DNA of 64,000 bases from an uncultured Gammaproteobacteria bacterium (GCA_964540825.1 CAZINT010000001.1:219396-283395); one strand, 5' to 3'; counted from the first letter of the stretch, positions 28 to 62,082 are shown. Notes: a model not told the origin generated them from the letters alone. Translations and numbers: made by a program.

Positions 28-621
28 ATGCTTGCTATTCTTTTAAAGCAGAGCAGACTTATTATCATGTGGGGAATTTTGATCGCCCTTATTTCGGTGG
101 GAGTAAGTTTCATTTTCCCCAAACAATATAGCGCGGTGAGCCGGGTAATTATTATTTCGCGTGACAAAACTGGTGTCGACCCATATACCCAGGCCAAAGC
201 TGCCGAACGCGTGGGTCAAGACTTGGCCCAGATTATGAAAACCACGGATTTTTATGGCAAAGTAGCGAGTGAGAGTCCGGATGTGTTCAGCGGTTCCGAA
301 TGGAAAAATTTAAGCGATCGTGACAGCCGTAAAAAATGGCAAAAAGACGTGCAGGCCCAGATGGTCTACGGAGCAAGCTTACTTGAGGTTACGGCTTACG
401 CTCTCGGTCAGGAAAAAGCACTCGCGCTATCTGCGGCAGTAACCAAAACGCTCGTTGCACATGGTTGGGAGTATAGCGGCGGGGATGTAGCAATTAAACA
501 GGTAGACAGCTCGCTCGTTTCACGCTTGCCAGCTCGGCCTAATTTTATTGTTAATGCAGGGATCGGTTTCTTGGTTGGAGGGTTTTTGGCAGCACTTTGG
601 GTGGTTCGGTATCGGAAATAA
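28..621 (+). CDS. Wzz/PCP-like polysaccharide chain-length determinant membrane protein (putative)
   Basis: 197 aa. N-terminal and C-terminal TM helices flank a soluble domain; C-terminal GxxxG-type helix and RYRK tail as in Wzz/YveK co-polymerases. Backbone GC. Confidence 0.4.
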   Translation: MLAILLKQSRLIIMWGILIALISVGVSFIFPKQYSAVSRVIIISRDKTGVDPYTQAKAAERVGQDLAQIMKTTDFYGKVASESPDVFSGSEWKNLSDRDSRKKWQKDVQAQMVYGASLLEVTAYALGQEKALALSAAVTKTLVAHGWEYSGGDVAIKQVDSSLVSRLPARPNFIVNAGIGFLVGGFLAALWVVRYRK

Positions 622-633: not shown

Positions 634-1965
634 ATGCATCCCGAATCTGCTCCTTATTATCCGCCGTCACTCGATAAAAAACCGCCAGCACCAACTCTTG
701 TTGGTCAGGAGGCGCTTAAATTCGCTGAGTTGCAACAAAGTTTGCTGGACGGTGTCGGAAATGCAGATAATTCTTTTGTTACGGAAGAGCGTGAGTATAA
801 AAAAATGACTGCTGAAATTAGCAGACAATTAAAAGAGCTTGAGAGGGATCGGGAAAGTCACGGGGCAGAAGCTGAATATCACGAGCGTATTAAAGAATGC
901 CAGAATAAAATCGCAGAACTAAAAGTTTTTATAGATAAAAAGTTGTCCCCCAAGTATGGGTACGATCGTCGCAGTAGGGCTGAACAAAATAAAAAGGAGA
1001 AAATGTATGCATTTACTCCTAACGATCGAGGTATCGTGCTGAAAGGCGAAACGCTTTCGCTTATCCATCTTAATCTAGCTGATGTACCCGTTGTCCACCA
1101 TAACTTGGCAAGTGATGATATTTTATACGGTAAAGAGGGGGAGGGGGTAAAGATAACTATCATGCCGCTGAATCAAAAATTAGATATTTTGGTTTCTGTT
1201 GGCAAAAATGTATATAGTTCGCATACCATTGAACCAACTCCAGAAGCTTTCAGAGAGGTGTTCGATAACTTGTTCAACTTGGTGCAAGATGATGAATACT
1301 CTGATTTTGCGAACGGTCCATCGCCAAGTCCTGTAGAACCAGCCCCTCAGTCTGCCGATGCGGCAAAATCTACTGTGGAGTTCAGAAATGGAATTCTTTA
1401 TTCCTCTGAAGAAGATTCTAAAGAATCATCAGGTGTTGTTGAAAAACCCAATGTTTTAAATCGATTCATGCGCCGTCTTAAGCGTCCATTGCTTGCTTTT
1501 GGAATTACCGGTGCACTTTTTGCTGTTCCTGAAAATAAGCAGCACTCAGAAGAAAATCCAGCGGTTGTGGCAGTGCAAAAAAATAATGACGCGCTAAATG
1601 CGCTGCGCGAAAAAGATCTCAAAGAAGCGCTGGGAATGCCTCTGGCACCTAACCAGTTGCTGCGGTTGGCCGAATCGTCCTTCGTATCTGACAAAGATTT
1701 GCAAAAACACGATCGTCGCGGTAAGCCAAAGTATGATCGCTCGGTTATTGAGGCCGAGATACGCGGTGCGCTAAAGCAATTACAACAAGGACACGATGCC
1801 GTGATTCATGGTACAATAGTGCTTACGCATGATGCGGTTGCTAAGCTTTTAGAAGGTGGTCAAACGGATGAATCCGCGCTTAACAAAAAACGATATACTA
1901 AAATTATCAAGCCCCTGCTTAAAGCGGCCAAGAAAAGACCGTCTACGCAGCGGCATCATTCTTAA
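634..1965 (+). CDS. large hypothetical protein, 443 aa, charged and coiled-coil-rich N-terminus
   Basis: Long ORF in backbone composition. Stop at 1963-1965 directly abuts the next ORF. No recognisable catalytic motif. Confidence 0.5.
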   Translation: MHPESAPYYPPSLDKKPPAPTLVGQEALKFAELQQSLLDGVGNADNSFVTEEREYKKMTAEISRQLKELERDRESHGAEAEYHERIKECQNKIAELKVFIDKKLSPKYGYDRRSRAEQNKKEKMYAFTPNDRGIVLKGETLSLIHLNLADVPVVHHNLASDDILYGKEGEGVKITIMPLNQKLDILVSVGKNVYSSHTIEPTPEAFREVFDNLFNLVQDDEYSDFANGPSPSPVEPAPQSADAAKSTVEFRNGILYSSEEDSKESSGVVEKPNVLNRFMRRLKRPLLAFGITGALFAVPENKQHSEENPAVVAVQKNNDALNALREKDLKEALGMPLAPNQLLRLAESSFVSDKDLQKHDRRGKPKYDRSVIEAEIRGALKQLQQGHDAVIHGTIVLTHDAVAKLLEGGQTDESALNKKRYTKIIKPLLKAAKKRPSTQRHHS

Positions 1966-4137
1966 GTGAATGTGAATATGGAAAAAAGTACTAGCGCTTC
2001 GCACGAAAACGATCCGCGTTTTAAATTGCCAGTTGAGCCTGAAACAGATATTTCTCTCAAGTCTGAGCAGGCTAAAAGCAACCTTCGGTTAGTAACTGAT
2101 TTTGAGGAAGGGCCGGCTAAAAAACGGTCGAATAAATTTTTTTTGAAACGGTCGGATAACACCCTTTTTCTTGGTAAAAAAGAAATTGATCTTTCAATTG
2201 ATGGGCGCGAACCGTCCTATCCTGCTCGAGGTAAAAATGTTTTTGTTTTTGGTTTTGGCAATAGTGTCTATAAAATATTTAAAGAAAAAGGAAAGCTGTA
2301 TGGCCAGGCAATACTTTTCGGCAAGGAACGCCCTCGAGTGCAGCTTGAATCGGACTGGAGTATTGTTAATGAGATCAATGTTTTTAAAGGAAATGTAAAA
2401 TTTAATTCTCGCTTGGAAACTGCCGAAGATGCTCCGGCGACCGGTGATGTTCAGCTTGATGAGGTGCCTGACAAACCGAACGCTGAAACGGCTGGTGCCG
2501 AGGAGCAGGCGGGATTGGTAGTGCCGCTCAGGGAATCGACTGAGCCTGCATATCTGCGTGATGATACGCGCGGATCTTCAGTAGAAAAAATTGAAATGAG
2601 GGTGCATAAAGATTTTGACGATCTTATCTCTAGTCCTCCCCGCGGGGTTGAAACTGTAGCACCTGCCGATGAATCCGTTACTCCAGAACAAAAAGTATTC
2701 ATCAGCGAAACTATTGCCGACGCTCGGGCTACATCAGTTGAATTACTGCAGTCATTAGCAGACGAGGGTAAAGATGAAGACTACTATGCATCGCTGAGTA
2801 TCGAGTATTCAACCGAGGATAAAGAAGCAGTTGCTCGGGGTGTAGCCGCCCGAACGTATGGGACCAGTTCAACGGGTGGTGACGGGTCAAGATATGCGGT
2901 TCCAGAAACGCTGCCGGTTCAGCATGAAAACAGAACCGCTCTCGTAGGAGTAGTCACGGAAGCAGGGCGTCTTGGAGCTGCGGTTATTGAAGCTACAACA
3001 CCACGCGCGCTCGAAGGTGCTCGGGGCATAGTAGCTCACGGCCTCGCTCAAGAACGATTTTCACTTACAACGGTTTTTGATGCTGCCCGCCGACTGCTAT
3101 CAAAAAAAGCTAAAACTGCCGAAAAGCTTTCGGCAGCAGCAATTACCGTAAGTCCTCAGGGTGAAGTTATTATGGCTTCTATGGGTGACACGGCTGTTCT
3201 TATGGTCCGCGAAGGAAAAAAAGTAGAGCTTGTTGATCAAAAAGAACCTGTTCCGACTAAAGACTTTCCGGCAAAGGGTGAAGCAGACGCTAAAGGTATG
3301 TCGGAGCTGCTTGAAACAAAAATGGCTCATGGTAAAGATCATGATCAGGTTATTGCCGCCACGAAACGTTTTTGGGATTTAGTGAGTGAGTATGAGGTAG
3401 AAAAATATGCCAAGCGCTATCGCGGCGAAGCTTTGCAAAAAGTTTTGTTTAATTTAGCGTACGACCGAAATAACGCGGTGGTGCCATTCGTAATTGAGAC
3501 AAGTCCGAACGAAAAGAAGTATGAGCAGCCTGCTAAGGGTGAGGGGGAGTCAATCGCTCTTCAGGTAACCCATGTGGAATTGCCAGAGCAGCGCGGTTTT
3601 CTTTCTAAACTCGGGCGCAGTAAAGCAGGTACGTGGTTACGCAGCGCCGCGCTCGTTGCCTTTGGTTTTTCAGCCCAGGGCAAATTGGACACTCGGTCGT
3701 ACACTCCGGACGAGATTGCTGCCATCCAAAAAGCGCCGGAAAAAATGCAGCCAAGTACAAAGCAGGCGGTTGAAAAAATTACGGTTGAAAATCGGCGTGG
3801 AAATGAGCATGAGTTGGTTCGGTTGGTAGATGCTGTAACTACAAAAATAAAATTACTTGGCAGTTCACCAGAAGATAACGGCCGCAAAGTTTTGATCGCA
3901 GCCTGGATGAAAAAACTATTACGCGGTGAAGACGCTGGCGGATTTAAAGCGGCTGATTTTAATAGAAATATACAGCACACTCGGGATGGGAAATTTAGCT
4001 TAAGTGCACCAGGGCTTGAACTGTTTATTGCGGATGCTGCGGGTGCAGCCAAAGAAAAAAAACATATTTCTACCGCTATAAAGTATGCGGAGACGACGTA
4101 TAAACTTGACTTTGGCAGTACTAAAAGTACACCTTAA
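1966..4137 (+). CDS. large hypothetical protein with degenerate PP2C-like region
   Basis: 723 aa. Segment AAAITVSPQGEVIMASMGDTAVLMVREGKKVELV resembles PP2C phosphatase motifs (GS/TA...vANvGDSRAvL.r.G), but the metal-ligand DGHGG is replaced by TEAGRLG. The true start may be the ATG at 1978. Confidence 0.5.
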   Translation: MNVNMEKSTSASHENDPRFKLPVEPETDISLKSEQAKSNLRLVTDFEEGPAKKRSNKFFLKRSDNTLFLGKKEIDLSIDGREPSYPARGKNVFVFGFGNSVYKIFKEKGKLYGQAILFGKERPRVQLESDWSIVNEINVFKGNVKFNSRLETAEDAPATGDVQLDEVPDKPNAETAGAEEQAGLVVPLRESTEPAYLRDDTRGSSVEKIEMRVHKDFDDLISSPPRGVETVAPADESVTPEQKVFISETIADARATSVELLQSLADEGKDEDYYASLSIEYSTEDKEAVARGVAARTYGTSSTGGDGSRYAVPETLPVQHENRTALVGVVTEAGRLGAAVIEATTPRALEGARGIVAHGLAQERFSLTTVFDAARRLLSKKAKTAEKLSAAAITVSPQGEVIMASMGDTAVLMVREGKKVELVDQKEPVPTKDFPAKGEADAKGMSELLETKMAHGKDHDQVIAATKRFWDLVSEYEVEKYAKRYRGEALQKVLFNLAYDRNNAVVPFVIETSPNEKKYEQPAKGEGESIALQVTHVELPEQRGFLSKLGRSKAGTWLRSAALVAFGFSAQGKLDTRSYTPDEIAAIQKAPEKMQPSTKQAVEKITVENRRGNEHELVRLVDAVTTKIKLLGSSPEDNGRKVLIAAWMKKLLRGEDAGGFKAADFNRNIQHTRDGKFSLSAPGLELFIADAAGAAKEKKHISTAIKYAETTYKLDFGSTKSTP

Positions 4138-4148
4138 ATTTTATTTAT

Positions 4149-7100
4149 ATGGGTAAAGGAGGTCGGGAGGCAGGGGCTGGCAAAGAGGTTGCGCCTGATA
4201 AAGCTAAAATCGATGAGCTGCTAAAACGCTGGGAAGCTGTTCTTCGGGCTAACCCGGGAATCGAAGCGGAAGCAGTCACCCGCATGAATTTGGAGTTTAC
4301 ACTGATTGGCAAAATAAAAAATGATAAGAAACGGACAAAGAAAATAGCCGAACTTGAAGCCGAAATTGCTCAATTTGAAGGCGTGCCATCGTCCAAGGTA
4401 CCAGCGGTCGATAATCAAGATACTTTGACAGTAAACACGTCTCTGCAAACACCGCATGCACAAAGTCAGCAATTGCCCGAGGATGTTGATGCGGACTTGG
4501 TATCGGGAACGGCCATTGATGATTACGAAGAATTCTCAGAAGATGCGGACGAGCCTCCACCCGAGGAAAAAAAGGATTGGGGGCAACCAGACCTCCGGAC
4601 TATTACGTTAGAGGACGCTGAGAAAGAAATTGACTGGGCAAAAAAATATCCAGAACTTGAGACGGCGATTAAGGGTGATTTGAATCAAGAAAATGAGCGT
4701 GTCTTTTATGGGGCGTATTTTCGCGCGTACCATGAAAAAGGCGTCACTGTTTTCGAGGATGGGTTAGATGGTATCGCTTCTGCTGAGGCGGTGTGGGCAG
4801 AAAATGAATATGAGTCTCAAGTGTCTGAGAAAAAATACACTGACCTCAAAAAATATGCACTCGACAATAATATTAATCTCGCTGTTGATTTTCCGGATGT
4901 TTTTGCAAGGTTAGAGGCGGCACGGGATGCGCTTGCGGATGCTATCGAACTGTCAACTGGTGAATTTCGTGCTGCAAACGATGTCTTTTTGGAAATTTTG
5001 AATGAATTGAATGCTAGTGTTGATTTGTTTATCACAGAAAAAATACGTATAGCTGAGGCCGAAGCTGAAGAGCAAGAAAAACGTAAAAATTTTTATGACA
5101 CTGTACAACAGGCACGTGCAGAGTTTCGGTCGAATTTTGAACGGTATGATATTGATCCGCAAGAATTTTTTCCCGTTGAGGATGAGCGTGCCGTTAATGC
5201 AATCCAGCATTTCGAACACGTAAAAGATGACGAAATTTCTATTGTTGAGGCCGCCTATACTGCGTGCCTTCTGGCTTTTAGTGAATTGCATAGTGCGCTC
5301 CAAGAATATATTCAATCACCCAATGCTGCGTCGGCAGATCTGGAAAAACCAATCACATTTGCCGAGGCTGAACAGGCGATTCAGTGGGCCAAAGATGAAT
5401 TCGCTCGAACCAAAGGAAAATTTGGTTTGCCGCCGCAACGAGAACCAAAAAGTGCTAAAGATACATTTGAGTGGGGTGCTTATTGGCGAACACAGCGGGA
5501 AGGCAAAGGTCAGATGAGTCAAAAAGAGTTGGATGAGGCCGCAGAACGCAACGGTGAATGCGCCCGGCGTGTATTTGTCGAACGACAATTTAATGTTTGG
5601 TTTGAAGCGCTGTGTAAAAAAGCCGAGCGCGCGGGTGTTTTAAATACTCTTTTTGATCGCTACGTAAAAAACGATCCGGCTGCAGGAAAAGTAGCGTGCA
5701 AGGAAAAAATGCTTGGCCCGCTTGAAACGATTGAACGAATCGCGGCTTACGATGAAGCGCACAAAAATGATGCAAACGCTAAGCCTTTTGACCTCCTCAG
5801 TCCGGCTGCTCAAAAAGAGTATCGAAACAGAGTCCTGCGTGCTGAGGGAGAGCTAACGAAACTTGATCGTGAAATTGGTAGCCTCATTAAAGAAAAAATG
5901 TGGGCTGACCCGAATAACCCCGACCGCGCCCAGCTTATCGCAGCGCTTGCTCCTGAGATCGCTCAGCATGATGCAGAAAATGCTTTGCCGCTTTCCCAAA
6001 TGGCAACAGCGGCTGATACCTATGGATTTTCACCAGAGGCACGCTTAGCTATTCAAAACGTCCTCACTGCCTGGGAAGGCGAGCATGCAGCTATTATAAA
6101 AAAATTAGCCAAACTCGAAGAGATGCAAAGCGACCCACGCATCCCCCCGGCCAAGGTCAAAAGTATGTGCGAGGCAATTGTTCGGCAATCAGCAGCTTTG
6201 AGTGAAAAAATTCAAAAGGGGATGGAGGAATATGTTGTGCCAGAACTTACCAAACAAACACAGGCTGAAATTGCCGCACTACTGGCGCTTGAAACTGTTC
6301 AGGCTGGGATTGGTTCTCAAAAAATAATCCAGGAAGAGCAGCGGGTGTCTGCTGAGCTTAGCAAGGCTCGGATCGCCCTTGAAACCGCACTCGCTGATTT
6401 CTTAACTGTGCCCGATGCGCGCGGTCAGTTTTTGGCGGCGCACCAAAAATATCATGAAGCTGCTACACGCGTCCGTTATTTTCAAGAGTCTGTACAGCCG
6501 ATCCGTGATGCTGCCAAAATCTCCGAACAGTATCGTGCCGTGAGTGATACGTATAGTTCTGCGCAACAATACTTGCACTATTTTTCAAACGAACTTAAGA
6601 TGCAGTTACCCAATCTATCTGCTGAATGTAATGATCTTGAGCGTAGATTGGAGGTGCTTGCCAAAAAGCCGGAGGCCTTAGCACTGGGCGAAATTGCCCC
6701 AGCAAAAGATTCGGTGGAGTTGTTTAAGCAGAAGGTTGTGGCGTTTAAAAAAATGCTTGAACAGGCTACGGCAGAAATTCCGGCTGCGGAAAAATTACGC
6801 CAAGAGAAAAAAGATACTGCTTTTAAAGATGAAATGAGAGAGGAATTTATACGCTTTCAAGATTTGCGTCGCAGGTATGAATCTTTAAAACAGGATATAG
6901 ATCCGAAAAATAATGCCGACCTGCTGAGGTTGTTCAGGTCGGAAATAGCTTTGCGTGATGAGTTTAGTGCCAAACTCAAAGCGGCCGGAAATACTAACGG
7001 GCTTGAACAATATAAGATTGCGTATAAAAATGAAGCAGACCGCATGGATGCAGCCTTGAACTATTTTAGCCATAGCCGTCTTTGGAAAATTGTTCAATCT

Positions 7101-7334
7101 CATCATGATGTTCCGCAAAGTGCTCGTGAACGCATCGAATACAATTTGGATTTACTGCACTCATTTTATATCAGCGGCAGTACCAGTAGAAATGATTTAT
7201 CCGAAAAAGCCCGGCTTATTTTTGATGAAATAAATGAGCTCGAGATAAAGCTCCCCCCTAAGAAGTCGCCGACACTTCGGGAAGTCGTTCGGGGAATCGG
7301 AAAAAAATTATTCGATAAAATAAAGCGTCCATAA
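4149..7334 (+). CDS. very large coiled-coil hypothetical protein (1061 aa, E/A/K-rich)
   Basis: Uninterrupted 3.2-kb ORF in backbone composition. Third member of a co-directional, tightly spaced trio. Followed by an intrinsic terminator. Confidence 0.5.
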   Translation: MGKGGREAGAGKEVAPDKAKIDELLKRWEAVLRANPGIEAEAVTRMNLEFTLIGKIKNDKKRTKKIAELEAEIAQFEGVPSSKVPAVDNQDTLTVNTSLQTPHAQSQQLPEDVDADLVSGTAIDDYEEFSEDADEPPPEEKKDWGQPDLRTITLEDAEKEIDWAKKYPELETAIKGDLNQENERVFYGAYFRAYHEKGVTVFEDGLDGIASAEAVWAENEYESQVSEKKYTDLKKYALDNNINLAVDFPDVFARLEAARDALADAIELSTGEFRAANDVFLEILNELNASVDLFITEKIRIAEAEAEEQEKRKNFYDTVQQARAEFRSNFERYDIDPQEFFPVEDERAVNAIQHFEHVKDDEISIVEAAYTACLLAFSELHSALQEYIQSPNAASADLEKPITFAEAEQAIQWAKDEFARTKGKFGLPPQREPKSAKDTFEWGAYWRTQREGKGQMSQKELDEAAERNGECARRVFVERQFNVWFEALCKKAERAGVLNTLFDRYVKNDPAAGKVACKEKMLGPLETIERIAAYDEAHKNDANAKPFDLLSPAAQKEYRNRVLRAEGELTKLDREIGSLIKEKMWADPNNPDRAQLIAALAPEIAQHDAENALPLSQMATAADTYGFSPEARLAIQNVLTAWEGEHAAIIKKLAKLEEMQSDPRIPPAKVKSMCEAIVRQSAALSEKIQKGMEEYVVPELTKQTQAEIAALLALETVQAGIGSQKIIQEEQRVSAELSKARIALETALADFLTVPDARGQFLAAHQKYHEAATRVRYFQESVQPIRDAAKISEQYRAVSDTYSSAQQYLHYFSNELKMQLPNLSAECNDLERRLEVLAKKPEALALGEIAPAKDSVELFKQKVVAFKKMLEQATAEIPAAEKLRQEKKDTAFKDEMREEFIRFQDLRRRYESLKQDIDPKNNADLLRLFRSEIALRDEFSAKLKAAGNTNGLEQYKIAYKNEADRMDAALNYFSHSRLWKIVQSHHDVPQSARERIEYNLDLLHSFYISGSTSRNDLSEKARLIFDEINELEIKLPPKKSPTLREVVRGIGKKLFDKIKRP

Positions 7335-7340
7335 TAAAAA

Positions 7341-7368
7341 AATCCCCAGCAAATTGGGGATTTTTTTA
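7341..7368 (+). terminator. rho-independent terminator
   Basis: Hairpin atcccca-gcaaat-tggggat followed by tttttttat. Confidence 0.7.
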
Positions 7369-7379
7369 TCCCTCAAGGA

Positions 7380-7408
7380 TTGACAAAAAATATTTTTTAT
7401 GCTTAGAT
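7380..7408 (+). promoter_or_regulatory. sigma70-like promoter for high-GC cassette A
   Basis: TTGACA (7380-7385), 17-nt spacer, TTAGAT (7403-7408). AGGAGG at 7441-7446 with GTG 6 nt downstream. Confidence 0.5.
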
Positions 7409-7452
7409 AAGGGCATCAACAATTCATGCGGCTTTGCCGCAGGAGGTCCAAA

Positions 7453-8205
7453 GTGGCGACGCACAATGCTCTCGGTGACCCCGATGGTCCAACCCCTCCC
7501 TATGAGGACACAGCGGAGCTTAAAATTCCGCCTTCGCTTCGTGTTCGAATCAAGCAGGGGTTGGGGTGGACCTACGAGGTCGTGCTCGTTCCGGTCTGGA
7601 ACCGTGGGTTGAAGCCGCTGACGTCACCCATCATCGTTCGGGTGCCCAGTGCCGTCTCGTTCATGCGGCAGCAGCGGTGGAACATCGCACTCTTCGCTGC
7701 TCTGCTCCTGGCTATCGTGCTTGCATACGTAGGTTACAAGTACGAGACTGCCCGCATGCGGGCTGCCTTCGTTCCGGCCGATCAGGGCGAGCACAGCACG
7801 GCGACACCTGTTGACCGTGATAGCGACGGTGTGGCGGACGAGACGGATCAGTGTCCCGATGTAGCGTCCGGCCCCACGCCGGATGCGAAGCGGCCCGGTT
7901 GCCCAGCGCCCGAGCAACCTGCTGCTCCGGTCCCGGTCTACCCTGACCTGTCGATCCCTGCGCCTGCCGCGTTGCCCGAAGAACCGCAAGCCGCTCCGCC
8001 CGCTGATGTGGATGGTGATCACGATGGGGAAGCGGCCGTCCCGTCCCGTCGACGTCACGTGCCGCATCGTAGGTTCAAGGCTGCGGTCGAGACGCCGCGG
8101 GCCTTCTGCCTGCGTATGCAGCGGGACCAGCGCTGGAGCCCCTGCTGCCAAGACGGCATCCCGGTCGCATGTTCGCCCGCTTCCTCAGCGCCCCATCGGC
8201 GCTAA
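7453..8205 (+). CDS. high-GC membrane/exported protein with thrombospondin-type-3-like Ca-binding motif (cassette A)
   Basis: GTG start 6 nt after AGGAGG, in frame with the track ORF at 7426. Internal TM helix WNIALFAALLLAIVLAYVGY. Motif DRDSDGVADETDQCPDV...KRPGCP matches the DxDxDGxxDxxDxCP...GCP TSP3/OmpA-linker repeat. Pro-rich. Near-saturated GC3. The C-terminal ~60 aa is Arg-rich and may be frameshifted. Confidence 0.4.
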   Translation: MATHNALGDPDGPTPPYEDTAELKIPPSLRVRIKQGLGWTYEVVLVPVWNRGLKPLTSPIIVRVPSAVSFMRQQRWNIALFAALLLAIVLAYVGYKYETARMRAAFVPADQGEHSTATPVDRDSDGVADETDQCPDVASGPTPDAKRPGCPAPEQPAAPVPVYPDLSIPAPAALPEEPQAAPPADVDGDHDGEAAVPSRRRHVPHRRFKAAVETPRAFCLRMQRDQRWSPCCQDGIPVACSPASSAPHRR

Positions 8206-8286
8206 CCCACGATAGCGTGGAAGAGTCGCGTGTGTTGGAGCTTTTCCGACCGCGCGACTTGCTTTGTTTTTAGCCCCACGAGGCCC

Positions 8287-8315
8287 TTGACAAAACCTTA
8301 AAAATGTGCTATACT
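8287..8315 (+). promoter_or_regulatory. consensus sigma70 promoter for cassette B
   Basis: TTGACA, 17 nt, TGTGC TATACT (extended -10). Followed by an AT-rich leader of about 345 nt before the ATG at 8668. Confidence 0.6.
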
Positions 8316-8667
8316 GATTTGTTACGTAAATAGAAAACCACACAACTAGCCAAGAAGCTCGAGAGAGGCTTCAAAGGTTAGCCAAAAGACCTTGTTTTAG
8401 CCAATTCTCTCACCCCAGGGAGTTTTTTTAGCTAAGAATGAACTAAGGTAAGCGGATTTAGATCCTTTTACCTTAGATCCATTCTAGGGTCTAACGCTCT
8501 TTACAATATAACCCTAGTTAAAAACCTACCCACCAATAATCGGTGAAGTATGGCGCAGAGAATGAGTTACCCAATATTGAGTCATTCATTCTCTGTTCCA
8601 GCTTCATTGTGAAGTTGGGGGAGCTGGAACGCTCAGAAACGTCAACCTTTTCGCTGGAGAAAAGATC

Positions 8668-9834
8668 ATGAACAGCAAGCTCGCCTTTGTCATCGCCATC
8701 CTCGCCGGCCTCTCGTCCACCTCCACCGCCCACGCCTTGAGCAGCGCCCACGACTTCGGTCTGGTCGTCCTGGGTCCCACGGACGAGCCCATCCCGTCGT
8801 GGGACGGGAACCCGGGGTCGATGACCCCGGCGAACGTCTGCAAGGCCGAGGGCAAGATCATGGCCCTTCAGGAGCCGACCGACAAGATCCGTGGTGGCGC
8901 CGTCGCTCAGGATGACCTGACGGCCCGGCGCGGCACGGTGTCGTCGCCCCAGAAGTCGATCGGGATCGTCGCGAACCGCAGCCAGATCGCCGGCAAGCAC
9001 GCCGGCGCCGCCTACTGCGTCGCGAAGTCCCGTGTCCTCTTCGCCGAGGACGTCGAGCAGCTGAACAAGCTCCTCAAGATCCTCCACAGCTTCAACGGCC
9101 CCGACGGCATGACGCGCCTCCGCGCCCTGCTCGGCGACCTGCCGCAGGGCAAGGAGACGATCCGCGAGTGGGTCACCGCCGCCATCACGGCGGGCGATCA
9201 GGGCACTAGCCTCGACTCGGCCAACCCCTTCAGCCCCCTCGCGATCAAGATCGCCCAGCTCATCGCCGAGATCAATCAGATCAAGGTCGAGCTCGAGGCG
9301 CTCAAGGCCCGCGTCGGCCAGCTCGAGACCGCGGTCGCAGAGCACTCGGCTCAGATCGCCAAGCTCCAGCAGACGGGCCCTGTGACCGGTCGGACCTTCG
9401 ATCTTCAGCTCCAGGGCATCGCGAGTGGCAGCCGGTTCATGATCGGTCTCGGCGGTGGTGCGAACCTCGTGTTCCACCTTCCTGTGCCGCGCCTCAGCGT
9501 CAAGTTCGGTGGCGACCTCATGGCCGCCTTCGAGACGGTCGGGTCCAATCGTATGGGCCTCGGCTGGGACGCGCGTGCGTTCGTCCAGTATCAGCTGCGT
9601 GAGTGGCTGACCATTGGCGGCGGGCTCTACATCGTCGGTGATGCTGGTACGATCAACGGTACCCGGTCGTTCGACGTTGGCCCTGCGCTGGACGCCGAGT
9701 TCTGGGTTCACCCGTTCGTCGCCGTCAACGCCTTCGCCTTCATCGGTGGTGGCAAGCACAGCGCCAGCTGGGCCATGTCGCAGCTGGGCGGTGGTGGCGG
9801 TCTCGGGGTCGTCCTGCGTCCCTTCCGCAAGTAG
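8668..9834 (+). CDS. high-GC secreted protein: signal peptide, central coiled coil, Gly-rich beta-rich C-terminal domain (cassette B)
   Basis: SD GGAGAAAAG 5-6 nt upstream. Signal peptide MNSKLAFVIAILAGLSSTSTAHA. Heptad-like IAQLIAEINQIKVELEALKARVGQLETAV. C-terminal alternating hydrophobic beta pattern. GC3 about 90% by eye. Confidence 0.5.
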   Translation: MNSKLAFVIAILAGLSSTSTAHALSSAHDFGLVVLGPTDEPIPSWDGNPGSMTPANVCKAEGKIMALQEPTDKIRGGAVAQDDLTARRGTVSSPQKSIGIVANRSQIAGKHAGAAYCVAKSRVLFAEDVEQLNKLLKILHSFNGPDGMTRLRALLGDLPQGKETIREWVTAAITAGDQGTSLDSANPFSPLAIKIAQLIAEINQIKVELEALKARVGQLETAVAEHSAQIAKLQQTGPVTGRTFDLQLQGIASGSRFMIGLGGGANLVFHLPVPRLSVKFGGDLMAAFETVGSNRMGLGWDARAFVQYQLREWLTIGGGLYIVGDAGTINGTRSFDVGPALDAEFWVHPFVAVNAFAFIGGGKHSASWAMSQLGGGGGLGVVLRPFRK

Positions 9835-9852
9835 CGGATAAACTAGGGTTCG

Positions 9853-9890
9853 GAGGGGAGCGGTGGACAGTAATGTCTGCCGCCCCCTCC
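9853..9890 (+). terminator. GC hairpin after cassette B (putative terminator)
   Basis: ggagggg...cccctcc inverted repeat immediately after the stop. No clear U-run. Confidence 0.35.
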
Positions 9891-9958
9891 AAAACCACAT
9901 TCTGTTTCTGAACAAATGTTCGGCAACAGAAAATGGTTCAGTTAGCCAAAAAAACCTA

Positions 9959-9987
9959 TTGACAAAACCTCAAAAATATGGTATAGT
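9959..9987 (+). promoter_or_regulatory. consensus sigma70 promoter for cassette C
   Basis: TTGACA, 17 nt, TATAGT. About 230-nt AT-rich leader with a long imperfect hairpin (ggtttcgcggtt...aaccgcgaaccc) at 10112-10170. Confidence 0.6.
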
Positions 9988-10224
9988 ATGTCGTTATTAA
10001 ATACAGCAGGTGCTTAGGAGTAGCCCATTAAAAATGGTCTTCTCCTAGACACTTGGCTCTGCCAAAAGTCTACGTTCTTTACAATCACATTGCTACTACT
10101 CAAAATGTTCTCCTGAAGGTTTCGCGGTTATCAGTACTTACTAATTATTTGGTAAGGTACTGGAAACCGCGAACCCGCTGCGTGTCTTAGGACACGCAGC
10201 ACCCACGACCACCAGGAGATGAAC

Positions 10225-10938
10225 ATGAACACGAACCACGTCCGCGCCCTGCTCACCGCCGCCCTGCTCACGCTCGCCCCGACCTTCGTCGTGGGCTGTG
10301 CCCCCGAGCCGATGGACGGCACGCCGTCCACGGTCATCGGCGACCGCGACGGCGACGGCACCAAGGACAACGTCGACAAGTGCCCCGACCTCGCCGGGCC
10401 CGGCAGCAACAACGGCTGCCCGGTCACCAACATGAGCGGGGGCGAGCCCGTGCCCGCCACCCTCACCGACGCGATCTGCTACGATCGGGACCACCACTAC
10501 CCCCACGCCTGCGCGGGGGAGTGCGTGACCAAGGTCCAGGACTCGCTGAACTGCGGCGCCTGCGGCCGCCGGTGCAAGCCGACGGTCGAGGCCTGCGAGA
10601 ACAGCGTCTGCATCCCGGCCGGCTCCGCCAAGTGGGGCGCCTGGGTCCAGAACGCCACCAACCGCACCCTGAACCTCACGGTCGGCCACACCGAGCTCGG
10701 CATCAGCGCCGTCGAGGAGCAGATCACGCTCGCCCCCGGCGCCTGGTGGGGCAACGGCAACTGGACCGGCGTCTACGCCTCCGAGAACCCCTGGAAGGAG
10801 AACGTGATGCAGGAGTCCCTCGCGGACTGCCAGCTCAAGTTCAACGGCAAGGGCCGCCGCGAGGTCGTCTTCAAGACGAACAACCGCACCGGCGTCGGCC
10901 GCTGCGAGTTCAAGACCGACGCGGAGGGTAACCTCTAG
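10225..10938 (+). CDS. high-GC Cys-rich lipoprotein with TSP3-like Ca-binding motif (cassette C)
   Basis: AGGAG 6 nt upstream of the second ATG (10225). Lipobox-like FVVGC. IGDRDGDGTKDNVDKCPDLAGPGSNNGCP is a TSP3-type repeat. Multiple Cys pairs. Five N-x-T sequons. Confidence 0.5.
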   Translation: MNTNHVRALLTAALLTLAPTFVVGCAPEPMDGTPSTVIGDRDGDGTKDNVDKCPDLAGPGSNNGCPVTNMSGGEPVPATLTDAICYDRDHHYPHACAGECVTKVQDSLNCGACGRRCKPTVEACENSVCIPAGSAKWGAWVQNATNRTLNLTVGHTELGISAVEEQITLAPGAWWGNGNWTGVYASENPWKENVMQESLADCQLKFNGKGRREVVFKTNNRTGVGRCEFKTDAEGNL

Positions 10939-11143
10939 CCGGTCCGGTGCGACGAGTAGTAACAAGTGATTACCTACCCTGGTGGGCCCCGCACGACGAC
11001 TCGAAAGAGACGTCTACGCGGGGCCTGCCTTCTACTTCATACTCATAATCTCACCAGATTGTGGAGATACAGTAGAAATAAAATCCTACCAAAACATCCA
11101 CCCTTTCTCTCAAGGCTGGATGTTTTGTTTTTACTCCGACTGT

Positions 11144-11592
11144 AAGCAGGTTAGGCAGAGTAAGTACTAAGCAGAATAAGTTTTTATGTTAGATAATTTC
11201 TTTGGCTTTGTATCCAGCGGGTTAACAGCTTACCAACTTCTTCACACTGACTTCTTGCCTGATTATATTCTGATTCTTTTAGATAGTGTAAGTCGTGGGC
11301 GAGAATGAAGTGATATTTAGTTTCTTCGAGCGAAGCGTCAGCAATATTGTAAAATTTAATACTGTCTCGTAATTCTTTTCTTCTAAATCCTTCAACGATG
11401 TTAGTAGGTACTGAAGCAGCAGATCTTCGTATTTGGCTCGTTAAACCAAAGAGTTCGCTTTTTGGAAATTGGTTGGTAACTTTATAAACAAAAAGCACGA
11501 GCGTATGTGCCTTTTGCCAAACCTGTAATTCTGTAAAAACTTTTATTGTCGTCATGCTTATTCTGCTTAGGACTTACTCTGCCTAATCTGCT
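11144..11592. repeat. 37-bp inverted repeats (2 mismatches) bracketing the four-helix-bundle protein gene
   Basis: Left arm 11144-11180 aagcaggttaggcagagtaagtactaagcagaataag. Right arm 11556-11592 is its reverse complement apart from two mismatches. The arms abut the gene stop and start codons. Confidence 0.7.
11184..11555 (-). CDS. four-helix-bundle protein (23S rRNA intervening-sequence protein family, TIGR02436-like)
   Basis: 123 aa. LTSQIRRSAASVPTNIVEG and overall helical pattern typical of the family. Confidence 0.75.
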   Translation of the reverse strand: MTTIKVFTELQVWQKAHTLVLFVYKVTNQFPKSELFGLTSQIRRSAASVPTNIVEGFRRKELRDSIKFYNIADASLEETKYHFILAHDLHYLKESEYNQARSQCEEVGKLLTRWIQSQRNYLT

Positions 11593-45002: not shown

Positions 45003-45074
45003 GGCCCGTTCGTCTATCAGTTAGGACAGTGCCCTCTCACGGCGCAAAGACGGGTGCGATTCCCGTACGGGCTA
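45003..45074 (+). tRNA. atypical tRNA-like gene, anticodon CUC (Glu-like)
   Basis: Hand-folded cloverleaf. Acceptor ggcccgt/acgggct with G1.U72; D-stem gtct/ggac; anticodon stem gtgcc/ggcgc; loop cuCUCac; T-arm acggg-tgcgatt-cccgt. Deviations are G at position 55 and U at position 19. CCA is not encoded. Confidence 0.45.
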
Positions 45075-45089
45075 CAGAGAATTGAAAAA

Positions 45090-45109
45090 CAGAGCAAGCT
45101 CTGTTTTTT
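45090..45109 (+). terminator. intrinsic terminator after the tRNA-like gene
   Basis: cagagc-aa-gctctg then tttttt. Confidence 0.7.
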
Positions 45110-45250
45110 GTTATTATAGTGTTTTGAGTTGGTAGTGTTTGGTTTGGAGTGGTCATTTATTAACTGGCGTAATTATTGAAAATAAAATTCAATAGTGATA
45201 CTATGAGGGCAGTGAATTTGCTTAAATTAAGGAGTTTTAGGTAAAATATT

Positions 45251-47221
45251 TTGATAAAATGCGGTATGCAAAACTTGTTAAATGATGTACTAAAACTACT
45301 AGAAAGTGATGATGGGTTTTTTGCGGAAAACAAGATGTTAAAAAATGTTGTAACCGAAGCAGCTCTAAAATTGGATACGGCGCTTTTGGAATTACTACAA
45401 AAAAACAATCAAATAAAAAAGCATTTTTTCGTGCAGGCCGCGGGAGTGTGGTTTTTTGATCAAGACAAGTTTATTAAGTTTATCAACAGCAAAGATTTTC
45501 TGCCTGATTCGTTTACCATTTTTAAGAACCATATAGGTCTTACGGACGGTGACGAGTATCTAAAAGATAGTGGAAAAGTGGTTTTGGCGTGGCCGTATAA
45601 AGATTGTGTTTTGGAGGGAGGACAGGACAAAGAAGATGTAAAACAGAGCGAAATTTTTTATAACGAGACCCTTGCGCCGGATGAAATTGACCGGCTGTTC
45701 GAGCCTAAGGTCTTAACCAATCTTAAAAAGATAGATAAAGACGGTGAACACAAGGTCGAGCAAATAAATGAACAGGATAATTTGATAATCAAAGGTAATA
45801 ATCTTTTAGCCCTCCATTCGTTAAAGAAAAAATATCGCGGCAAGGTTAAGCTGATTTACATTGATCCGCCGTATAACACCGGCAGCGATGGTTTTAACTA
45901 TAACGACAGTTTTAACCATTCAACGTGGCTGACTTTTATGAAAAATCGGCTCGAAGTAGCTAAACAGCTGTTGAGTGAGGAGGGTTCAATTTATATTTCA
46001 ATTGATAACAATGAATTGCCATATCTACAGATTTTAATGGATGAAATTTTTGGAAATGAAAATAAGAAAAATATTATTACTGTAAAAAGAAGTGCTGTTT
46101 CAGGTGCAAAAGTTATCAATCCGGGCGTTGTTAATGTTTCGGAATTTATTATTGTATATTCAAAAGATTTTAAGAAGTGGCAAGCTAATAAAGTTTTTAG
46201 AAAAAAAGGTAGGGATGAGAGGTATAACAACTATATAACAAACTTCGAAAGTGAGCCTGAAAAATGGAAATTTTCTTCAGTATTAGACGGTTGGGCTGAG
46301 TCGCTTGGAATAGAGAAAACAAAATTAAAAAAGTATTTTGGCGATAATTATGATGAGGAATTAGAAAAGTTTTATCTGCTTAATGCTCACAGAATAATGC
46401 AGTTCGTAACACTGGATGAGAATGCGGTTTCAGATGAAGTGATAAAAATAAAAAATAAATCTAAAAATGATTCATCCAGAGTACATCGGTTGAAAAGAGA
46501 AAATGGAAAATTAGATTACTTTATATTTAAAGGAAAAGCGATTTTATTTTTAGTAAACAGATTAATGGAAATTGACGGTGAAAAGGTTTTTGCAGAGCCA
46601 TTAACTGATATTTGGGAGGATGTTCTGCCTAACGACTTACATAACGAAGGTGGAGTATCTTTAAAAAAAGGGAAAAAGCCGGAAAAATTAATTCAAAGAA
46701 TAATTGAGCTCAGCAGTAAGTCTGGTGATTTAATTTTAGATTACCATTTAGGAAGCGGGACAACGGCAGCTGTAGCACATAAAATGGGTAGGCGGTATAT
46801 TTGTGTTGAACAGCTGGATTACGGCAACAATGATAGTGTCGTAAGGTTACAAAATACTATAAAAGGTGAGCAAAGCGGAATTTCAAAAGCTGTAAATTGG
46901 AAAGGCGGGGGCTCTTTTGTGTATGCCGAATTAAAGCAATGGAATGAGGAGTATATGCAGGCTATACAGGAGGCCAAAACTGCAAAGGAAATAGCCGCTA
47001 TTTATAAAAAAATGCGTGCTGAAGCATTTTTCCGGTACGAGGTTGATTTAAGCAGGTTTGAACAGAAGCAATTTGACCAATTGACTTTAGACGAGCAGAA
47101 AAAAGTTTTGCTTCTATGTTTGGACAAAAATCATCTGTATGTAAATTACAGTGAAATGGAAGATGCAACCTATAAAATACTTACCGAAGAAAAGAAAATT
47201 AACAAGCAATTTTACAGCTAA
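45251..47221 (+). CDS. mod: type III restriction-modification methyltransferase (Mod)
   Basis: IYIDPPYNTG (DPPY N6-adenine MTase motif). Very AT-rich. Confidence 0.85.
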   Translation: MIKCGMQNLLNDVLKLLESDDGFFAENKMLKNVVTEAALKLDTALLELLQKNNQIKKHFFVQAAGVWFFDQDKFIKFINSKDFLPDSFTIFKNHIGLTDGDEYLKDSGKVVLAWPYKDCVLEGGQDKEDVKQSEIFYNETLAPDEIDRLFEPKVLTNLKKIDKDGEHKVEQINEQDNLIIKGNNLLALHSLKKKYRGKVKLIYIDPPYNTGSDGFNYNDSFNHSTWLTFMKNRLEVAKQLLSEEGSIYISIDNNELPYLQILMDEIFGNENKKNIITVKRSAVSGAKVINPGVVNVSEFIIVYSKDFKKWQANKVFRKKGRDERYNNYITNFESEPEKWKFSSVLDGWAESLGIEKTKLKKYFGDNYDEELEKFYLLNAHRIMQFVTLDENAVSDEVIKIKNKSKNDSSRVHRLKRENGKLDYFIFKGKAILFLVNRLMEIDGEKVFAEPLTDIWEDVLPNDLHNEGGVSLKKGKKPEKLIQRIIELSSKSGDLILDYHLGSGTTAAVAHKMGRRYICVEQLDYGNNDSVVRLQNTIKGEQSGISKAVNWKGGGSFVYAELKQWNEEYMQAIQEAKTAKEIAAIYKKMRAEAFFRYEVDLSRFEQKQFDQLTLDEQKKVLLLCLDKNHLYVNYSEMEDATYKILTEEKKINKQFYS

Positions 47222-47229
47222 AAATTTTT

Positions 47230-49842: not shown

Positions 49843-49851
49843 TTTTAATTT

Positions 49852-50760
49852 GTGTCCCTCTTCAAAATCACCAATCAAAAAACCAAGAAAATTCTTCCTG
49901 CTAAAGTTCTTAAAGAACAATACATACATTCTTTATTTGAAGCTAACCTTGAGGAATTACTCGGTATATACTTTTTGGCACACGAATATAGCACCTCGGC
50001 AGGCGGTAGAATCGATACGCTTGGAGTAGATAAAAACGGTTCACCGTGCGTGATTGAATATAAAAAAGGCCAAAACGACAATGTTATTAATCAAGGATTG
50101 TCGTATTTACGCTGGCTTTTGGATCACAAAGCCGATTTTGAAAGGCTGTGCCAAAACAAAAATTTTAAAGTGAGTATTGATTGGACTTCGCCTCGAGTTA
50201 TTTGTATCGCTGAAAACTATAATAAGTTTGATATCGATACCGTAGAAATATTGCCCATAAAAATTGAATTGTTAAAATACGGCTTGTATGATGGCGGGTT
50301 GTTGCAGTTGGAACACGAGAAACACGACAATATAAAAGTAAGTACAGGTGAAATATATAAAAATTCCAAGAAAGACAATAAGGTAGTGGGCGAAAAGCTT
50401 CAAAAAGAATATAGCGTTGATCATCATTTGCAAGGCAAAAAAGAAGAAATCAAAAAAATCTTTTTTGATATTAGGGAATGGGTCACTAACCTTGATAAGG
50501 ATATTGTTGAGGAACCGAAAAAGTTATATGTCGCCTATAAGTTAGCCACCAATTTTGTTGATGTCGAAATTCGGAGTAAAGATATAAAACTATTTTTGAA
50601 TATACCAAAGGGGAAATTAAATGATCCTCTGGGGTTGGCTCGAGATGTTTCGAGCGTTGGGCATTGGGGAAATGGCGATTATGAGGTAAAAATAACTACT
50701 AAGAGCGATTTAGAGCCTGTGTATGGCCTGGTGCGGCAGAGTTATGAATTTAATAAATAA
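49852..50760 (+). CDS. PD-(D/E)xK nuclease-like protein (DUF91/NucS-like N-terminus plus C-terminal domain of unknown function)
   Basis: GGRIDTLGVDKNGSPCVIEYKKGQ (D...ExK). 9 nt after res. Same AT-rich composition. Confidence 0.45.
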   Translation: MSLFKITNQKTKKILPAKVLKEQYIHSLFEANLEELLGIYFLAHEYSTSAGGRIDTLGVDKNGSPCVIEYKKGQNDNVINQGLSYLRWLLDHKADFERLCQNKNFKVSIDWTSPRVICIAENYNKFDIDTVEILPIKIELLKYGLYDGGLLQLEHEKHDNIKVSTGEIYKNSKKDNKVVGEKLQKEYSVDHHLQGKKEEIKKIFFDIREWVTNLDKDIVEEPKKLYVAYKLATNFVDVEIRSKDIKLFLNIPKGKLNDPLGLARDVSSVGHWGNGDYEVKITTKSDLEPVYGLVRQSYEFNK

Positions 50761-60815: not shown

Positions 60816-61079
60816 ATGACTTGGTACATATATATACTTTTAAGTCAATCCAAACTCCATTGGTATATTGGTTCATCTGGCAATCTGCCGGATAGACTTC
60901 GTCGTCATAATGGTGGAATGAGTAAAAGCACCAAACCGTATAGACCGTGGAATATGGTATACACAGAATCCTTCAATACTTTGTCTGAAGCGGTACGAAG
61001 GGAGCGGTATTTAAAATCACCTCAAGGGTATAAGGAGTATCAACAAATAAAAAATAACATTCTTGGAGAGTTCGCATAG
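60816..61079 (+). CDS. small GIY-YIG nuclease-family protein (YhbQ/UPF0213-like)
   Basis: YIYILLSQSKLHWYIGSSGNLPDRLRRHNGG. The last 5 codons are encoded by the 5' end of tRNA-Ser. Confidence 0.7.
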   Translation: MTWYIYILLSQSKLHWYIGSSGNLPDRLRRHNGGMSKSTKPYRPWNMVYTESFNTLSEAVRRERYLKSPQGYKEYQQIKNNILGEFA

Positions 61080-61150
61080 TTGGTCTAGTGCGCACGCTTG
61101 GAAAGCGTGTATACCGAAAGGTATCGAGGGTTCGAATCCCTCACTCTCCG
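61065..61150 (+). tRNA. tRNA-Ser (anticodon GGA)
   Basis: Acceptor ggagagt/actctcc; anticodon stem cacgc/gcgtg; loop ttGGAaa; long variable arm tatacc-gaaa-ggtata; T-arm gaggg-ttcgaat-ccctc; discriminator G. Confidence 0.8.
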
Positions 61151-61224
61151 CATCTTGAAAATCGTAGTTGAAAGCGTGTTGCAAATGGGCGCATAATGGA
61201 CACTATTTATTTTGTAAAAATAAA

Positions 61225-61656
61225 ATGTTCAGCTCTATCTATCAATTAGGCGACAAACTGGAAGATAAGGTGCGGGGCTGGTGCAGTCATCGCCCGATTA
61301 CGTATGCGTTTATCGGCGGCTTTGGCGTGGTAGTTTTTTGGCGAGGAGCATGGAATACGGTCGATTTTCTTATGAGCCATTTTTTCGGTTCTGGCGGCGG
61401 TGAAACGTTGCTTTGGTGGGATGGGCCGCTTTCCCTCGCAGTGGGTTCGGCTATTACGCTTGCGACCGGTTTATTTGTGTCCAATTTTATCGGTAACGAA
61501 ATTATTATTTCCGGGCTGCGCGGACAAAAGAAATTAGTGGAAAAAACTGAGGCGGAAATTATTTCGGAAGTAGAAACAATTGAAGAAATTCATACGGATG
61601 TTCATGCGATGGCCAAACAAGTGCAGCATATTGAAAAAACAGTTGCAAAGGAGTAG
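61225..61656 (+). CDS. hypothetical membrane protein
   Basis: Two TM helices and a coiled C-terminus. The track start at 61168 is too close to the tRNA, so the internal ATG is preferred. Confidence 0.35.
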   Translation: MFSSIYQLGDKLEDKVRGWCSHRPITYAFIGGFGVVVFWRGAWNTVDFLMSHFFGSGGGETLLWWDGPLSLAVGSAITLATGLFVSNFIGNEIIISGLRGQKKLVEKTEAEIISEVETIEEIHTDVHAMAKQVQHIEKTVAKE

Positions 61657-61777
61657 TTCTGGTACTAGTTAAAAATAAAATTCAGCTGCGCTACCGCGAC
61701 TACCTCATTTCGAGTGAGGTAGTTTGAATATGTGGTATAGTATGAAAAATTCATACAAGGTGATTGATTAAAATGAT

Positions 61778-62026: not shown

Positions 62027-62050
62027 GTTGTTTGAAAATATATCGTACTA

Positions 62051-62080: not shown

Positions 62081-62082
62081 TA

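Follow-up and report, generated by a model that had tools for sequence, protein, structure and literature searches.

In a 64,000-nucleotide (nt) stretch of DNA from an uncultured Gammaproteobacteria bacterium (CAZINT010000001.1:219396-283395, one strand; hereafter the window, over whose whole length all positions are counted), three co-directional open reading frames (ORFs) located at 634-7334 were analyzed and named A, B and C. Based on profile homology and on the residues occupying the metal-ligand positions, protein B is predicted to represent a pseudophosphatase of the PP2C type and not an active PPM enzyme. For the three gene products taken together, a function as non-catalytic, membrane-proximal scaffold organizing or regulating the surface-polymer machinery is tentatively proposed and assigned a probability of about 40%. 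A first-pass annotation of the same DNA had pointed to the peptide ITVSPQGEVIMASMGDTAVLMVREGKK, corresponding to B residues 392-418, as a sign of a degenerate PP2C-like fold and possibly of a pseudophosphatase. This suspicion was borne out, with DGHGG and the other metal ligands being absent and PP2C homologues being recovered by profile search.

PP2C ancestry and metal-ligand positions of protein B

Comparison of A, B and C with Pfam and NCBIfam yielded no family match, for B not even at E ≤ 1. This agrees with the earlier statement that the trio lacks recognizable enzyme motifs, and no homology to ordinary housekeeping families emerged from these scans. Searches of B against PDB sequences using phmmer returned noise only. 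With a profile built from three B orthologues, rice PP2C50 ranked first among PDB entries at only E 0.08, matching in two collinear segments with the GDS and DGLWD motifs. Homologue searches spanned 5.8 billion clusters and 1.84 billion representative proteins. Within the latter collection, the B-orthologue profile recovered 61 proteins at E ≤ 1e-3, 57 of which do not belong to the B family (best E 4.9e-18). The canonical motifs DGxGG, SDGxW and DNxT are present in nearly all of these 57 proteins, and the sequences L006, P0007, P0008, P0012 and P0020 pass the Pfam PP2C/PP2C_2 cut-offs (reference families for the PPM/PP2C fold: PF00481 and PF13672). In the hmmalign alignment, B residues 304-310, 322-324 and 340-346 are placed under GGxxSKY, NED and DGAGG, and residues 407-408, 464-471 and 527-532 under GD, SDGFWD and GDNIT, the order of the PP2C motifs being collinear. 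Transitive profile homology, without a direct match to a curated profile, thus assigns a predicted PP2C ancestry to B.

Metal-ligand positions were compared across 64 domains aligned by hmmalign, namely 60 relatives and four B orthologues, with D38, D60, D239 and D282 of PPM1A serving as reference ligands for the metals M1 and M2. Among the relatives, metal-binding positions are ~95% conserved. Asp was found in 55/56 sequences at N-E/Q-D, in 57/58 at D-A-G-G, in 57/59 at G-D and in 59/60 at S-D-G, and both Asp and Asn of G-D-N-I-T in 57/57. At the ligand columns, the B orthologues show N-R/Y-T (T324), E-A/S-T/S-T/D (E342), T-K/A/Q-R/E/Q (K467, R468) and G/P-E/G-S/P-I/F-A (E528, S529). Three of the four ligand aspartates are replaced together with their neighbouring Gly or Asn (substitutions in B: GG to TT, DG to KR and DN to ES), and the fourth is changed to Glu, in every orthologue. 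PPM phosphatases require two metals, M1 and M2, held by these aspartates (PMC12002173), and B should be unable to dephosphorylate because the two-metal mechanism needs the residues that were replaced. Comparable ligand losses define pseudophosphatases such as RssB of E. coli (PMC6546054) as well as TAB1 and PHLPP2 (PMC6546054, PMC12002173).

Protein B is composed of a disordered N-terminus, a beta domain, an acidic linker of ~140 residues, the PP2C-type domain devoid of its ligands, a hydrophobic motif and a C-terminal domain, in this order. Modelling from three sequences by AlphaFold2 (AF2) reached an overall predicted local distance difference test score (pLDDT) of 42.8; top Foldseek hits of this model were PP2C proteins, all sub-threshold, with RssB-type structures among the matches. 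The N-terminal beta domain (pLDDT 66-84) was modelled as seven strands followed by a helix at residues 130-148, and its FKGNV/FKLNV motif is kept in all five family members; a fold search with residues 56-148 gave no convincing match. Residues 541-570 (QRGFLSKLGRSKAGKWLRGAALVAFG) represent the most conserved stretch of B, in which G, L, S, G, W, R, A, L, V, G and S are invariant in five sequences. Its hydrophobic segment comprises ~11-14 apolar residues, includes an Arg and reaches a 19-residue hydropathy maximum of 1.29 (threshold 1.6). The C-terminal domain is characterized by the conserved motifs RxNE, GRxV...LRG...GF and KHISTA..YAE and is also present in the metagenomic protein P0005.

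P0005 (654 aa; locus L008, 421-2385) shows the full architecture of B, including FKxNV, linker, PP2C, docking motif and C-terminal domain. It retains GDS, SDGLW and GDNIT and, judged by these motifs, looks like an active form of B. It is encoded on a 2.7-kb contig featuring no adjoining A-like gene. Since P0005 combines the B architecture with intact motifs, inactivation probably arose within a pre-existing multidomain protein. The PP2C subfamily ancestral to B carries the signature FWDLVSEYE ... YRG..LQ..L..LA..RNN and, as seen for P0007-P0023, often forms part of giant proteins (1000-3180 aa), among which one has MORN repeats.

Gene layout, partner proteins and conserved neighbourhood

Re-reading of the window reproduced the ORF positions, the lengths of 443, 723 and 1061 aa and the gaps of 0 and 11 nt given by the first-pass annotation, as well as its Wzz-like gene directly before the trio and its terminator at the end of the operon (Table 1). 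The in-frame ATG is the likelier start of B compared with the GTG, because the orthologues and the gene call on a Logan contig begin at the equivalent Met; with this start, the gap between A and B amounts to 12 nt. The gene for the Wzz-like protein, which passes the Pfam Wzz cut-off (E 5e-8, 33.6 bits, cut-off 25.5) and has transmembrane (TM) segments at residues 11-29 and 174-192 by hydropathy, is also separated from A by 12 nt. The terminator hairpin is absent from the list of a consensus terminator scan, whose other hits are at chance level (10 found vs 10.2 expected), and could act in both directions because an A-run precedes it. A sub-threshold Rfam match to the 'rimP leader' at 7301-7399, on both strands, was dismissed as reflecting the terminator hairpin only. 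The A-B-C layout looks like an operon, as had been suggested. However, transcription probably extends beyond the trio: in relatives, the syntenic block also takes in Wzz and two membrane proteins encoded upstream of the window.

Table 1. Positions of the trio, its domains and motifs, and adjoining features in the window
Feature	Position	Strand	Description
Wzz-like gene	28..621	+	197 aa, two TM, CpsC/PCP-2b-like; first gene of the unit visible in the window
Protein A	634..1965	+	ORF, 443 aa, orphan
Heptad segment	760..846	+	A residues 43-71, only clear heptad pattern in A
Basic and Gly/Ala/Phe hydrophobic motif	1462..1530	+	A residues 277-299, RFMRRLKRPLLAFGITGALFAVP
Protein B	1966..4137	+	ORF, 723 aa from GTG 1966; 719 aa from ATG 1978
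N-terminal beta domain and helix cap	2131..2409	+	B residues 56-148, invariant FKGNV motif
Predicted PP2C-fold domain, metal ligands lost	2848..3585	+	B residues ~295-540
Basic-hydrophobic motif	3586..3675	+	B residues 541-570, QRGFLSKLGRSKAGTWLRSAALVAFGFSAQG
C-terminal alpha/beta domain	3799..4113	+	B residues 612-716, AF2 pLDDT 65-84
Protein C	4149..7334	+	ORF, 1061 aa, orphan
Intrinsic terminator	7343..7367	+	Stem TCCCCA/TGGGGA, 6-nt loop GCAAAT, then T7; read directly from sequence
Island protein	7426-8205	+	TM, TSP3-like
Island protein	8668-9834	+	Signal peptide, coiled coil, Gly-rich end
Island protein	10219-10938	+	Lipoprotein-like, 13 Cys, Pfam Stig1 3.5e-5

In four genomes, the order of a 264-aa polytopic membrane protein, a 355-aa membrane-anchored protein, Wzz, A and B is kept, with Wzz immediately upstream of A in 4/4 cases and synteny persisting down to 35% identity of B. 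The conserved unit therefore comprises the two membrane proteins, Wzz, A and B and differs from the trio, since no homologue of C was detectable in L002 and L005, the two more distant genomes. The neighbourhood expected to be conserved was thus found for Wzz, A and B in four genomes, whereas C is replaced by unrelated proteins in two. In L002 and L005, small acidic ORFs (one or two) together with proteins of 1043-1067 and 1199-1345 aa fill the slot after B, and for these no similarity to C was detected by BLASTP or profile-profile comparison. Moreover, profile-profile comparison showed no A-B paralogy and no relation of C to the downstream 1199/1345-aa proteins, and all-against-all BLASTP at E ≤ 1e-2 gave neither cross-family matches nor internal repeats.

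Both membrane proteins are encoded outside the window and belong to no Pfam family. The gene for the 264-aa protein (~7 TM segments) lies 5' of window position 1, and in the closest relative (L001) it is located together with the gene for the 355-aa protein at 2913-3707 and 3738-4805, respectively. The 355-aa protein is N-terminally anchored, and its end weakly resembles an HtrA-type PDZ domain (E 0.2). Envelope genes around the locus encode Wzz, a Wzy_C-type protein, a GHL15 hydrolase with FG-GAP, an LtaS-like sulfatase, MraY, MurB, Mur ligases and PBP2.

All three ORFs represent real genes, since their orthologues are intact and syntenic in three other genomes and the proportion of nonsynonymous differences (pN) is well below the saturated proportion of synonymous differences (pS); disruption of the ORFs in close relatives, which would have spoken against the first-pass annotation, was not seen. 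An independent assembly of the same organism (the Logan contig) is identical over 13.9 kb without single-nucleotide polymorphisms. Compared with L001, pN amounts to 0.21 (A), 0.23 (B) and 0.29 (C), with pS saturated at 0.63-0.74. Wzz is almost invariant between these two closest genomes (pN 0.04), and A, B and C diverge 5-7x faster. Judged by these values, the trio is under purifying but relaxed selection.

The claim that these proteins are lineage-specific was likewise upheld. In all collections searched, B is represented by four orthologues plus a single paralogue-like fragment, and homologues of A and C are fewer still; word-indexed searches returned three matches for B, two for C and two for A. 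Orthologues of B share 62%, 38% and 35% identity with it. A is recognizable in the same four genomes as B and lies directly upstream of B each time, its identity amounting to 63% in L001, ~30% in L005 and ~23% in L002. The sole homologue of C was found in L001 (51% identity). Two metagenome scans revealed no further trio loci, the first being empty and the second giving two distant PP2C-only fragments. Furthermore, A, B and C did not match PADLOC or PHROG profiles, and tblastn detected neither B nor C in phages and no B in plasmids. The locus appears to have no links to defence systems, phages or plasmids.

Protein A comprises a short heptad-bearing, helical N-terminal region, a beta-rich middle part, a Pro/acidic linker, a conserved motif and a basic helical C-terminus. 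In a crude scan, heptads cover 7% of A (2% in shuffles). The conserved motif has the core RFKRPLLxLGIAGALFAVPE, in which basic residues precede a Gly/Ala/Phe hydrophobic segment of 13-15 residues located between prolines. In four orthologues, R277, R281, K283, P285, L286, G290 and P299 are invariant, and hydropathy reaches 1.76 over 15 residues and at most 1.02 over 19 residues. Conservation in A and B is highest at the hydrophobic motifs, which are alike, each combining a basic stretch with 11-15 small or apolar residues, too few for an ordinary TM helix. Such a helix was rejected for both motifs on hydropathy, the 19-residue scores being below 1.6. We infer that the two motifs act as membrane-peripheral or protein-docking elements. 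The Walker A motif [AG]x4GK[ST] was found in none of A, B and C, and A as a bacterial tyrosine kinase (BY-kinase) partner of Wzz was rejected for its lack.

Protein C is acidic (net charge -42) and consists of an N-terminal three-helix unit, a disordered acidic linker at ~79-150 and ~900 residues of helices, each 25-50 residues long. Its AF2 model, based on two sequences, is all-alpha without strands, with pLDDT values of 55.7 overall and 65-78 at residues 600-1035 and a confidently predicted N-terminal three-helix unit. Foldseek searches with this model returned nothing at E ≤ 1e-3, only generic helical-bundle proteins. An internal duplication, residues ~160-230 vs ~400-480, is likely, as suggested by a Smith-Waterman score of 47 compared with 28.1 +/- 5.1 in 300 shuffles (shuffle maximum 46). 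The repeat halves correspond to window positions 4626-4838 and 5346-5588 and have the common pattern IT(L/F)xxAExxIxWAK ... (F/W)xxGAY(F/W)R; motifs of the ARYW/GAYW type also recur in the unrelated slot-3 protein of L002.

Regarding the biochemical properties, the description of the first and third proteins as charged is correct (A, B and C: K+R 14-15%, D+E 15-18%), and their description as coiled-coil-rich is overstated, heptads being limited to residues 43-71 of A and to ~14% of C in the crude scan. The stated lack of signal peptides also holds, no N-terminal hydrophobic segment being present in A, B or C. Kyte-Doolittle maxima over 19 residues are 1.0-1.3, and no internal segment passes the TM threshold. 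A, B and C are predicted to be cytoplasmic because they have neither a signal peptide nor a classical TM helix.

Candidate functions of the locus

In the proposed assembly, B would act as a non-catalytic binding module that holds a partner or a phosphorylated protein without hydrolysis, by analogy with RssB and TAB1. A and B would be placed at the cytoplasmic face of the membrane via their hydrophobic motifs, where they could pair with one another or with membrane proteins encoded alongside them, and may recruit a fast-evolving, lineage-variable helical rod protein, represented here by C. Such an assembly could organize or regulate the surrounding surface-polymer machinery, including Wzz, the Wzy_C-type protein and the GHL15 hydrolase. 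By positional analogy, A and B would fill the place that a cytoplasmic regulatory partner takes beside CpsC-type Wzz in Gram-positive capsule loci.

Several points weigh against this proposal. The link to polysaccharide synthesis is one of gene order, and binding partners as well as membrane association are hypothetical, the hydrophobic motifs of A and B failing the standard TM criterion. The 5-7x faster change of A, B and C compared with Wzz would be unusual in a core envelope machine. Ser/Thr and Tyr kinases, FHA domains and Walker A motifs were not detected in the trio or in the other window ORFs scanned, so that a phospho-signalling context is not visible locally. Structural support for the PP2C core is weak when taken alone, because the AF2 model has low confidence, with pLDDT <50 across most of residues 295-540. 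Finally, E342 (4/4), D408 of G-D (3/4) and a basic residue at 309 (3/4) are retained among the B orthologues, so that one metal site or phosphate binding, and with it some residual chemistry, may persist.

The first-pass annotation had proposed a cytoskeletal or host-interaction module, but no finding speaks more for either role than for a membrane-proximal scaffold. It appears unlikely that the trio serves contacts with host or partner cells, with A, B and C being exported non-classically and the dead PP2C domain acting as a mimic or trap for signalling proteins of the host. The fast evolution relative to the adjoining Wzz (pN 0.21-0.29 vs 0.04), the filling of the third slot by unrelated large proteins in related genomes and the long acidic disordered linkers without recognizable enzymatic motifs would fit such a role. 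The same applies to the hypervariable GC-rich island of secreted proteins or lipoproteins that the operon abuts in four genomes, to the occurrence of the same PP2C subfamily inside giant proteins of up to 3180 aa and to the organism itself, which looks small-genomed, deep-branching and possibly epibiotic. However, A, B and C lack signal peptides, no secretion-system genes were seen among the window ORFs scanned, and the tightly conserved linkage is to integral membrane proteins and Wzz, not to a secretion apparatus. Moreover, A and B have strongly conserved internal motifs, as would be expected for a fixed interaction inside the cell more than for an arms race.

A cytoskeletal or structural role, in which A and C would form filaments or lattices as helical proteins in the manner of DivIVA or EzrA and B would be accessory, is considered improbable. 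It would accommodate the all-alpha, long-helical nature of C, the best Foldseek hits of which are rod-shaped helical bundles, among them alpha-catenin, vinculin and talin (all non-significant), together with the heptad segment of A and a weak NCBIfam match of A to a DivIVA-related model (E 0.13, 12.5 bits, cut-off 55). None of these similarities is significant, though, and heptad periodicity covers only the small fractions of A and C given above. Furthermore, C is not conserved within its small clade, unlike core cytoskeletal proteins, and domains of actin, tubulin, bactofilin and DivIVA were not detected by Pfam and NCBIfam.

That B is still an enzyme, hydrolyzing phosphate esters or other bonds in a remodelled pocket of E342, D408, E528, R309 and K467 with another metal stoichiometry, is given a similarly low chance. 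The retained residues named above, the conserved flanking scaffold residues and the purifying selection on the domain would be compatible with activity. However, the pocket chemistry varies among the four orthologues at 467 (A/K/K/Q) and 528 (G/E/E/G), and the metal cradle has lost its Gly-Gly and Asn. No PPM enzyme is known to work without M1 and M2 (PMC12002173), and losses of this kind define RssB, TAB1 and PHLPP2 (PMC6546054, PMC12002173).

It is also conceivable, if hardly probable, that the A-B pair, Wzz and the two membrane proteins form a fixed platform that presents or exports interchangeable, quickly diversifying giant helical proteins and is functionally coupled to the GC-rich island; proteins of 1040-1350 aa unrelated to C occupy the slot in relatives. 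If true, the locus would be of a type not yet described, serving to diversify the cell surface or host interaction in a lineage resembling the candidate phyla radiation (CPR). Finally, decaying or spurious, functionless ORFs, to which the missing family matches and the very narrow distribution might point, can be practically disregarded in view of uninterrupted frames of 443-1061 aa in two to four genomes at 23-64% identity, pN well below saturated pS, conserved motifs and an identical independent assembly.

Surrounding features and comparison with known systems

The label 'Gammaproteobacteria' carried by related metagenome-assembled genomes (MAGs; L004-L006) was rejected as a taxonomic guide on the basis of ribosomal protein L20 and BipA. 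For L20, scores are equal (72-83 bits) with the proteins of Pseudomonas, Bacillus, E. coli and Thermus, and BipA reaches only ~605 bits against E. coli BipA, a moderate similarity. The label looks wrong because both proteins are no closer to gammaproteobacterial than to Firmicutes or Thermus proteins. The organism may be deep-branching and CPR-like, as suggested by gene content of the monoderm type and by a PP2C relative from a Saccharibacteria MAG. One source study covers wastewater and river metagenomes (PMC9405806).

A GC-rich island (0.53-0.70 vs a background of ~0.45) follows the operon in four related genomes (window 7400-11000; L001 12000-16000; L005 from 20000; L002 from 18000), and the islands share almost no protein similarity. 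Judged by their features (Table 1), the plus-strand proteins of the window's island look secreted or membrane-bound. Automatic minus-strand gene calls in the island look like GC-rich shadow ORFs. A low-GC element of ~50 nt with the near-consensus promoter TTGACAAAACCTyAAAAATrTGsTATAsT occurs at 8286-8339 and 9955-10003, both in spacers of the island, and is found again in the islands of L001, L002 and L005. Each copy in the window precedes a long low-GC leader (8320-8667 and 9990-10218), and Rfam gave no match for these leaders. The former may represent a small RNA or a regulatory leader because of a terminator-like hairpin at 8407-8429. Between the island and the Wzy_C gene, a minus-strand gene (11184-11555) encodes a 123-aa four-helix-bundle protein of the 23S rRNA-IVP family, which more weakly (46 bits) also matches bAvd, an accessory protein of diversity-generating retroelements. 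This gene, near which no reverse transcriptase was observed, is absent at the corresponding position in L001.

Further downstream, a low-GC segment (0.34-0.37) at 45003-50760 directly follows tRNA-Glu (45003-45075) and encodes a DUF5655 protein as well as a Type III restriction-modification pair (Mod 45251-47221, Res 47230-49842). Its low GC content, tRNA boundary and cargo make an integrated island probable. A second GC-rich stretch (0.56) at 61065-64000 follows tRNA-Ser (61065-61151), resembles the island after protein C in composition and contains a 472-aa ORF (61996-63414) without Pfam family and with overlapping antisense ORFs.

To our knowledge, bacterial PP2C pseudophosphatases are few, with RssB being the textbook case. 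B resembles E. coli RssB in that a bacterial PP2C-type domain without catalytic aspartates would serve as protein-binding module (PMC6546054). RssB, a response regulator of 337 aa, has a receiver domain, which B lacks, and functions as adaptor delivering sigma-S to ClpXP. B additionally features the N-terminal beta domain, the 140-residue acidic linker, the hydrophobic motif and an extra C-terminal domain, and no sequence relationship between the two proteins beyond the general PP2C fold was found. TAB1 and PHLPP2 differ in being eukaryotic, in showing other substitutions and in keeping one metal in M2. PstP of M. tuberculosis is located in an FHA/kinase/RodA/PBP operon. The neighbours of B are Wzz, two membrane proteins, A and C, with no kinase or FHA gene among the window ORFs scanned. 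PstP (PDB 1TXO) is, moreover, catalytically active and has a bona fide TM helix, whereas B is predicted from its sequence to be inactive and its hydrophobic segment fails the TM criterion.

Regarding gene order, the locus is reminiscent of CpsC/CpsD, in which a short two-TM Wzz-like protein is likewise directly followed by the gene for a cytoplasmic partner, the analogy being positional only. The Wzz-like protein matches NCBIfam CpsC weakly (3.4e-5, far below cut-off) and has no cytoplasmic activating tail, A lacks Walker A/BY-kinase motifs, and a PHP-type CpsB was not found.

The closest relatives of B belong to the SEYE subfamily of PP2C proteins (L006, 323 aa; L007, 347 aa, from a Saccharibacteria MAG; P0005, 654 aa), with which it has GGxxSKY, ...FWDLVSEYE... 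and YRG..LQ..L..LA..RNN in common. Unlike B, this subfamily keeps NED, DGAGG, GDS, SDGFW and GDNIT, passes the Pfam PP2C thresholds and is presumably active. Its members mostly stand alone or reside in giant proteins, none being located beside Wzz or A. We know of no description of a beta domain, a dead PP2C domain, a docking motif and a C-terminal domain combined in one protein, nor of the pairing of such a protein with an orphan partner downstream of Wzz. As seen here, a handful of orthologues can suffice to seed a profile search that assigns a fold missed by curated profiles. In a lineage with almost no characterized proteins, the locus offers a testable entry to envelope organization and regulation in small-genome, CPR-like bacteria. 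Compared with the systems above, B is notable for its unusual multidomain architecture, its traceable, apparently active ancestor form (P0005), its conserved partner and its fixed link to a Wzz-type co-polymerase.

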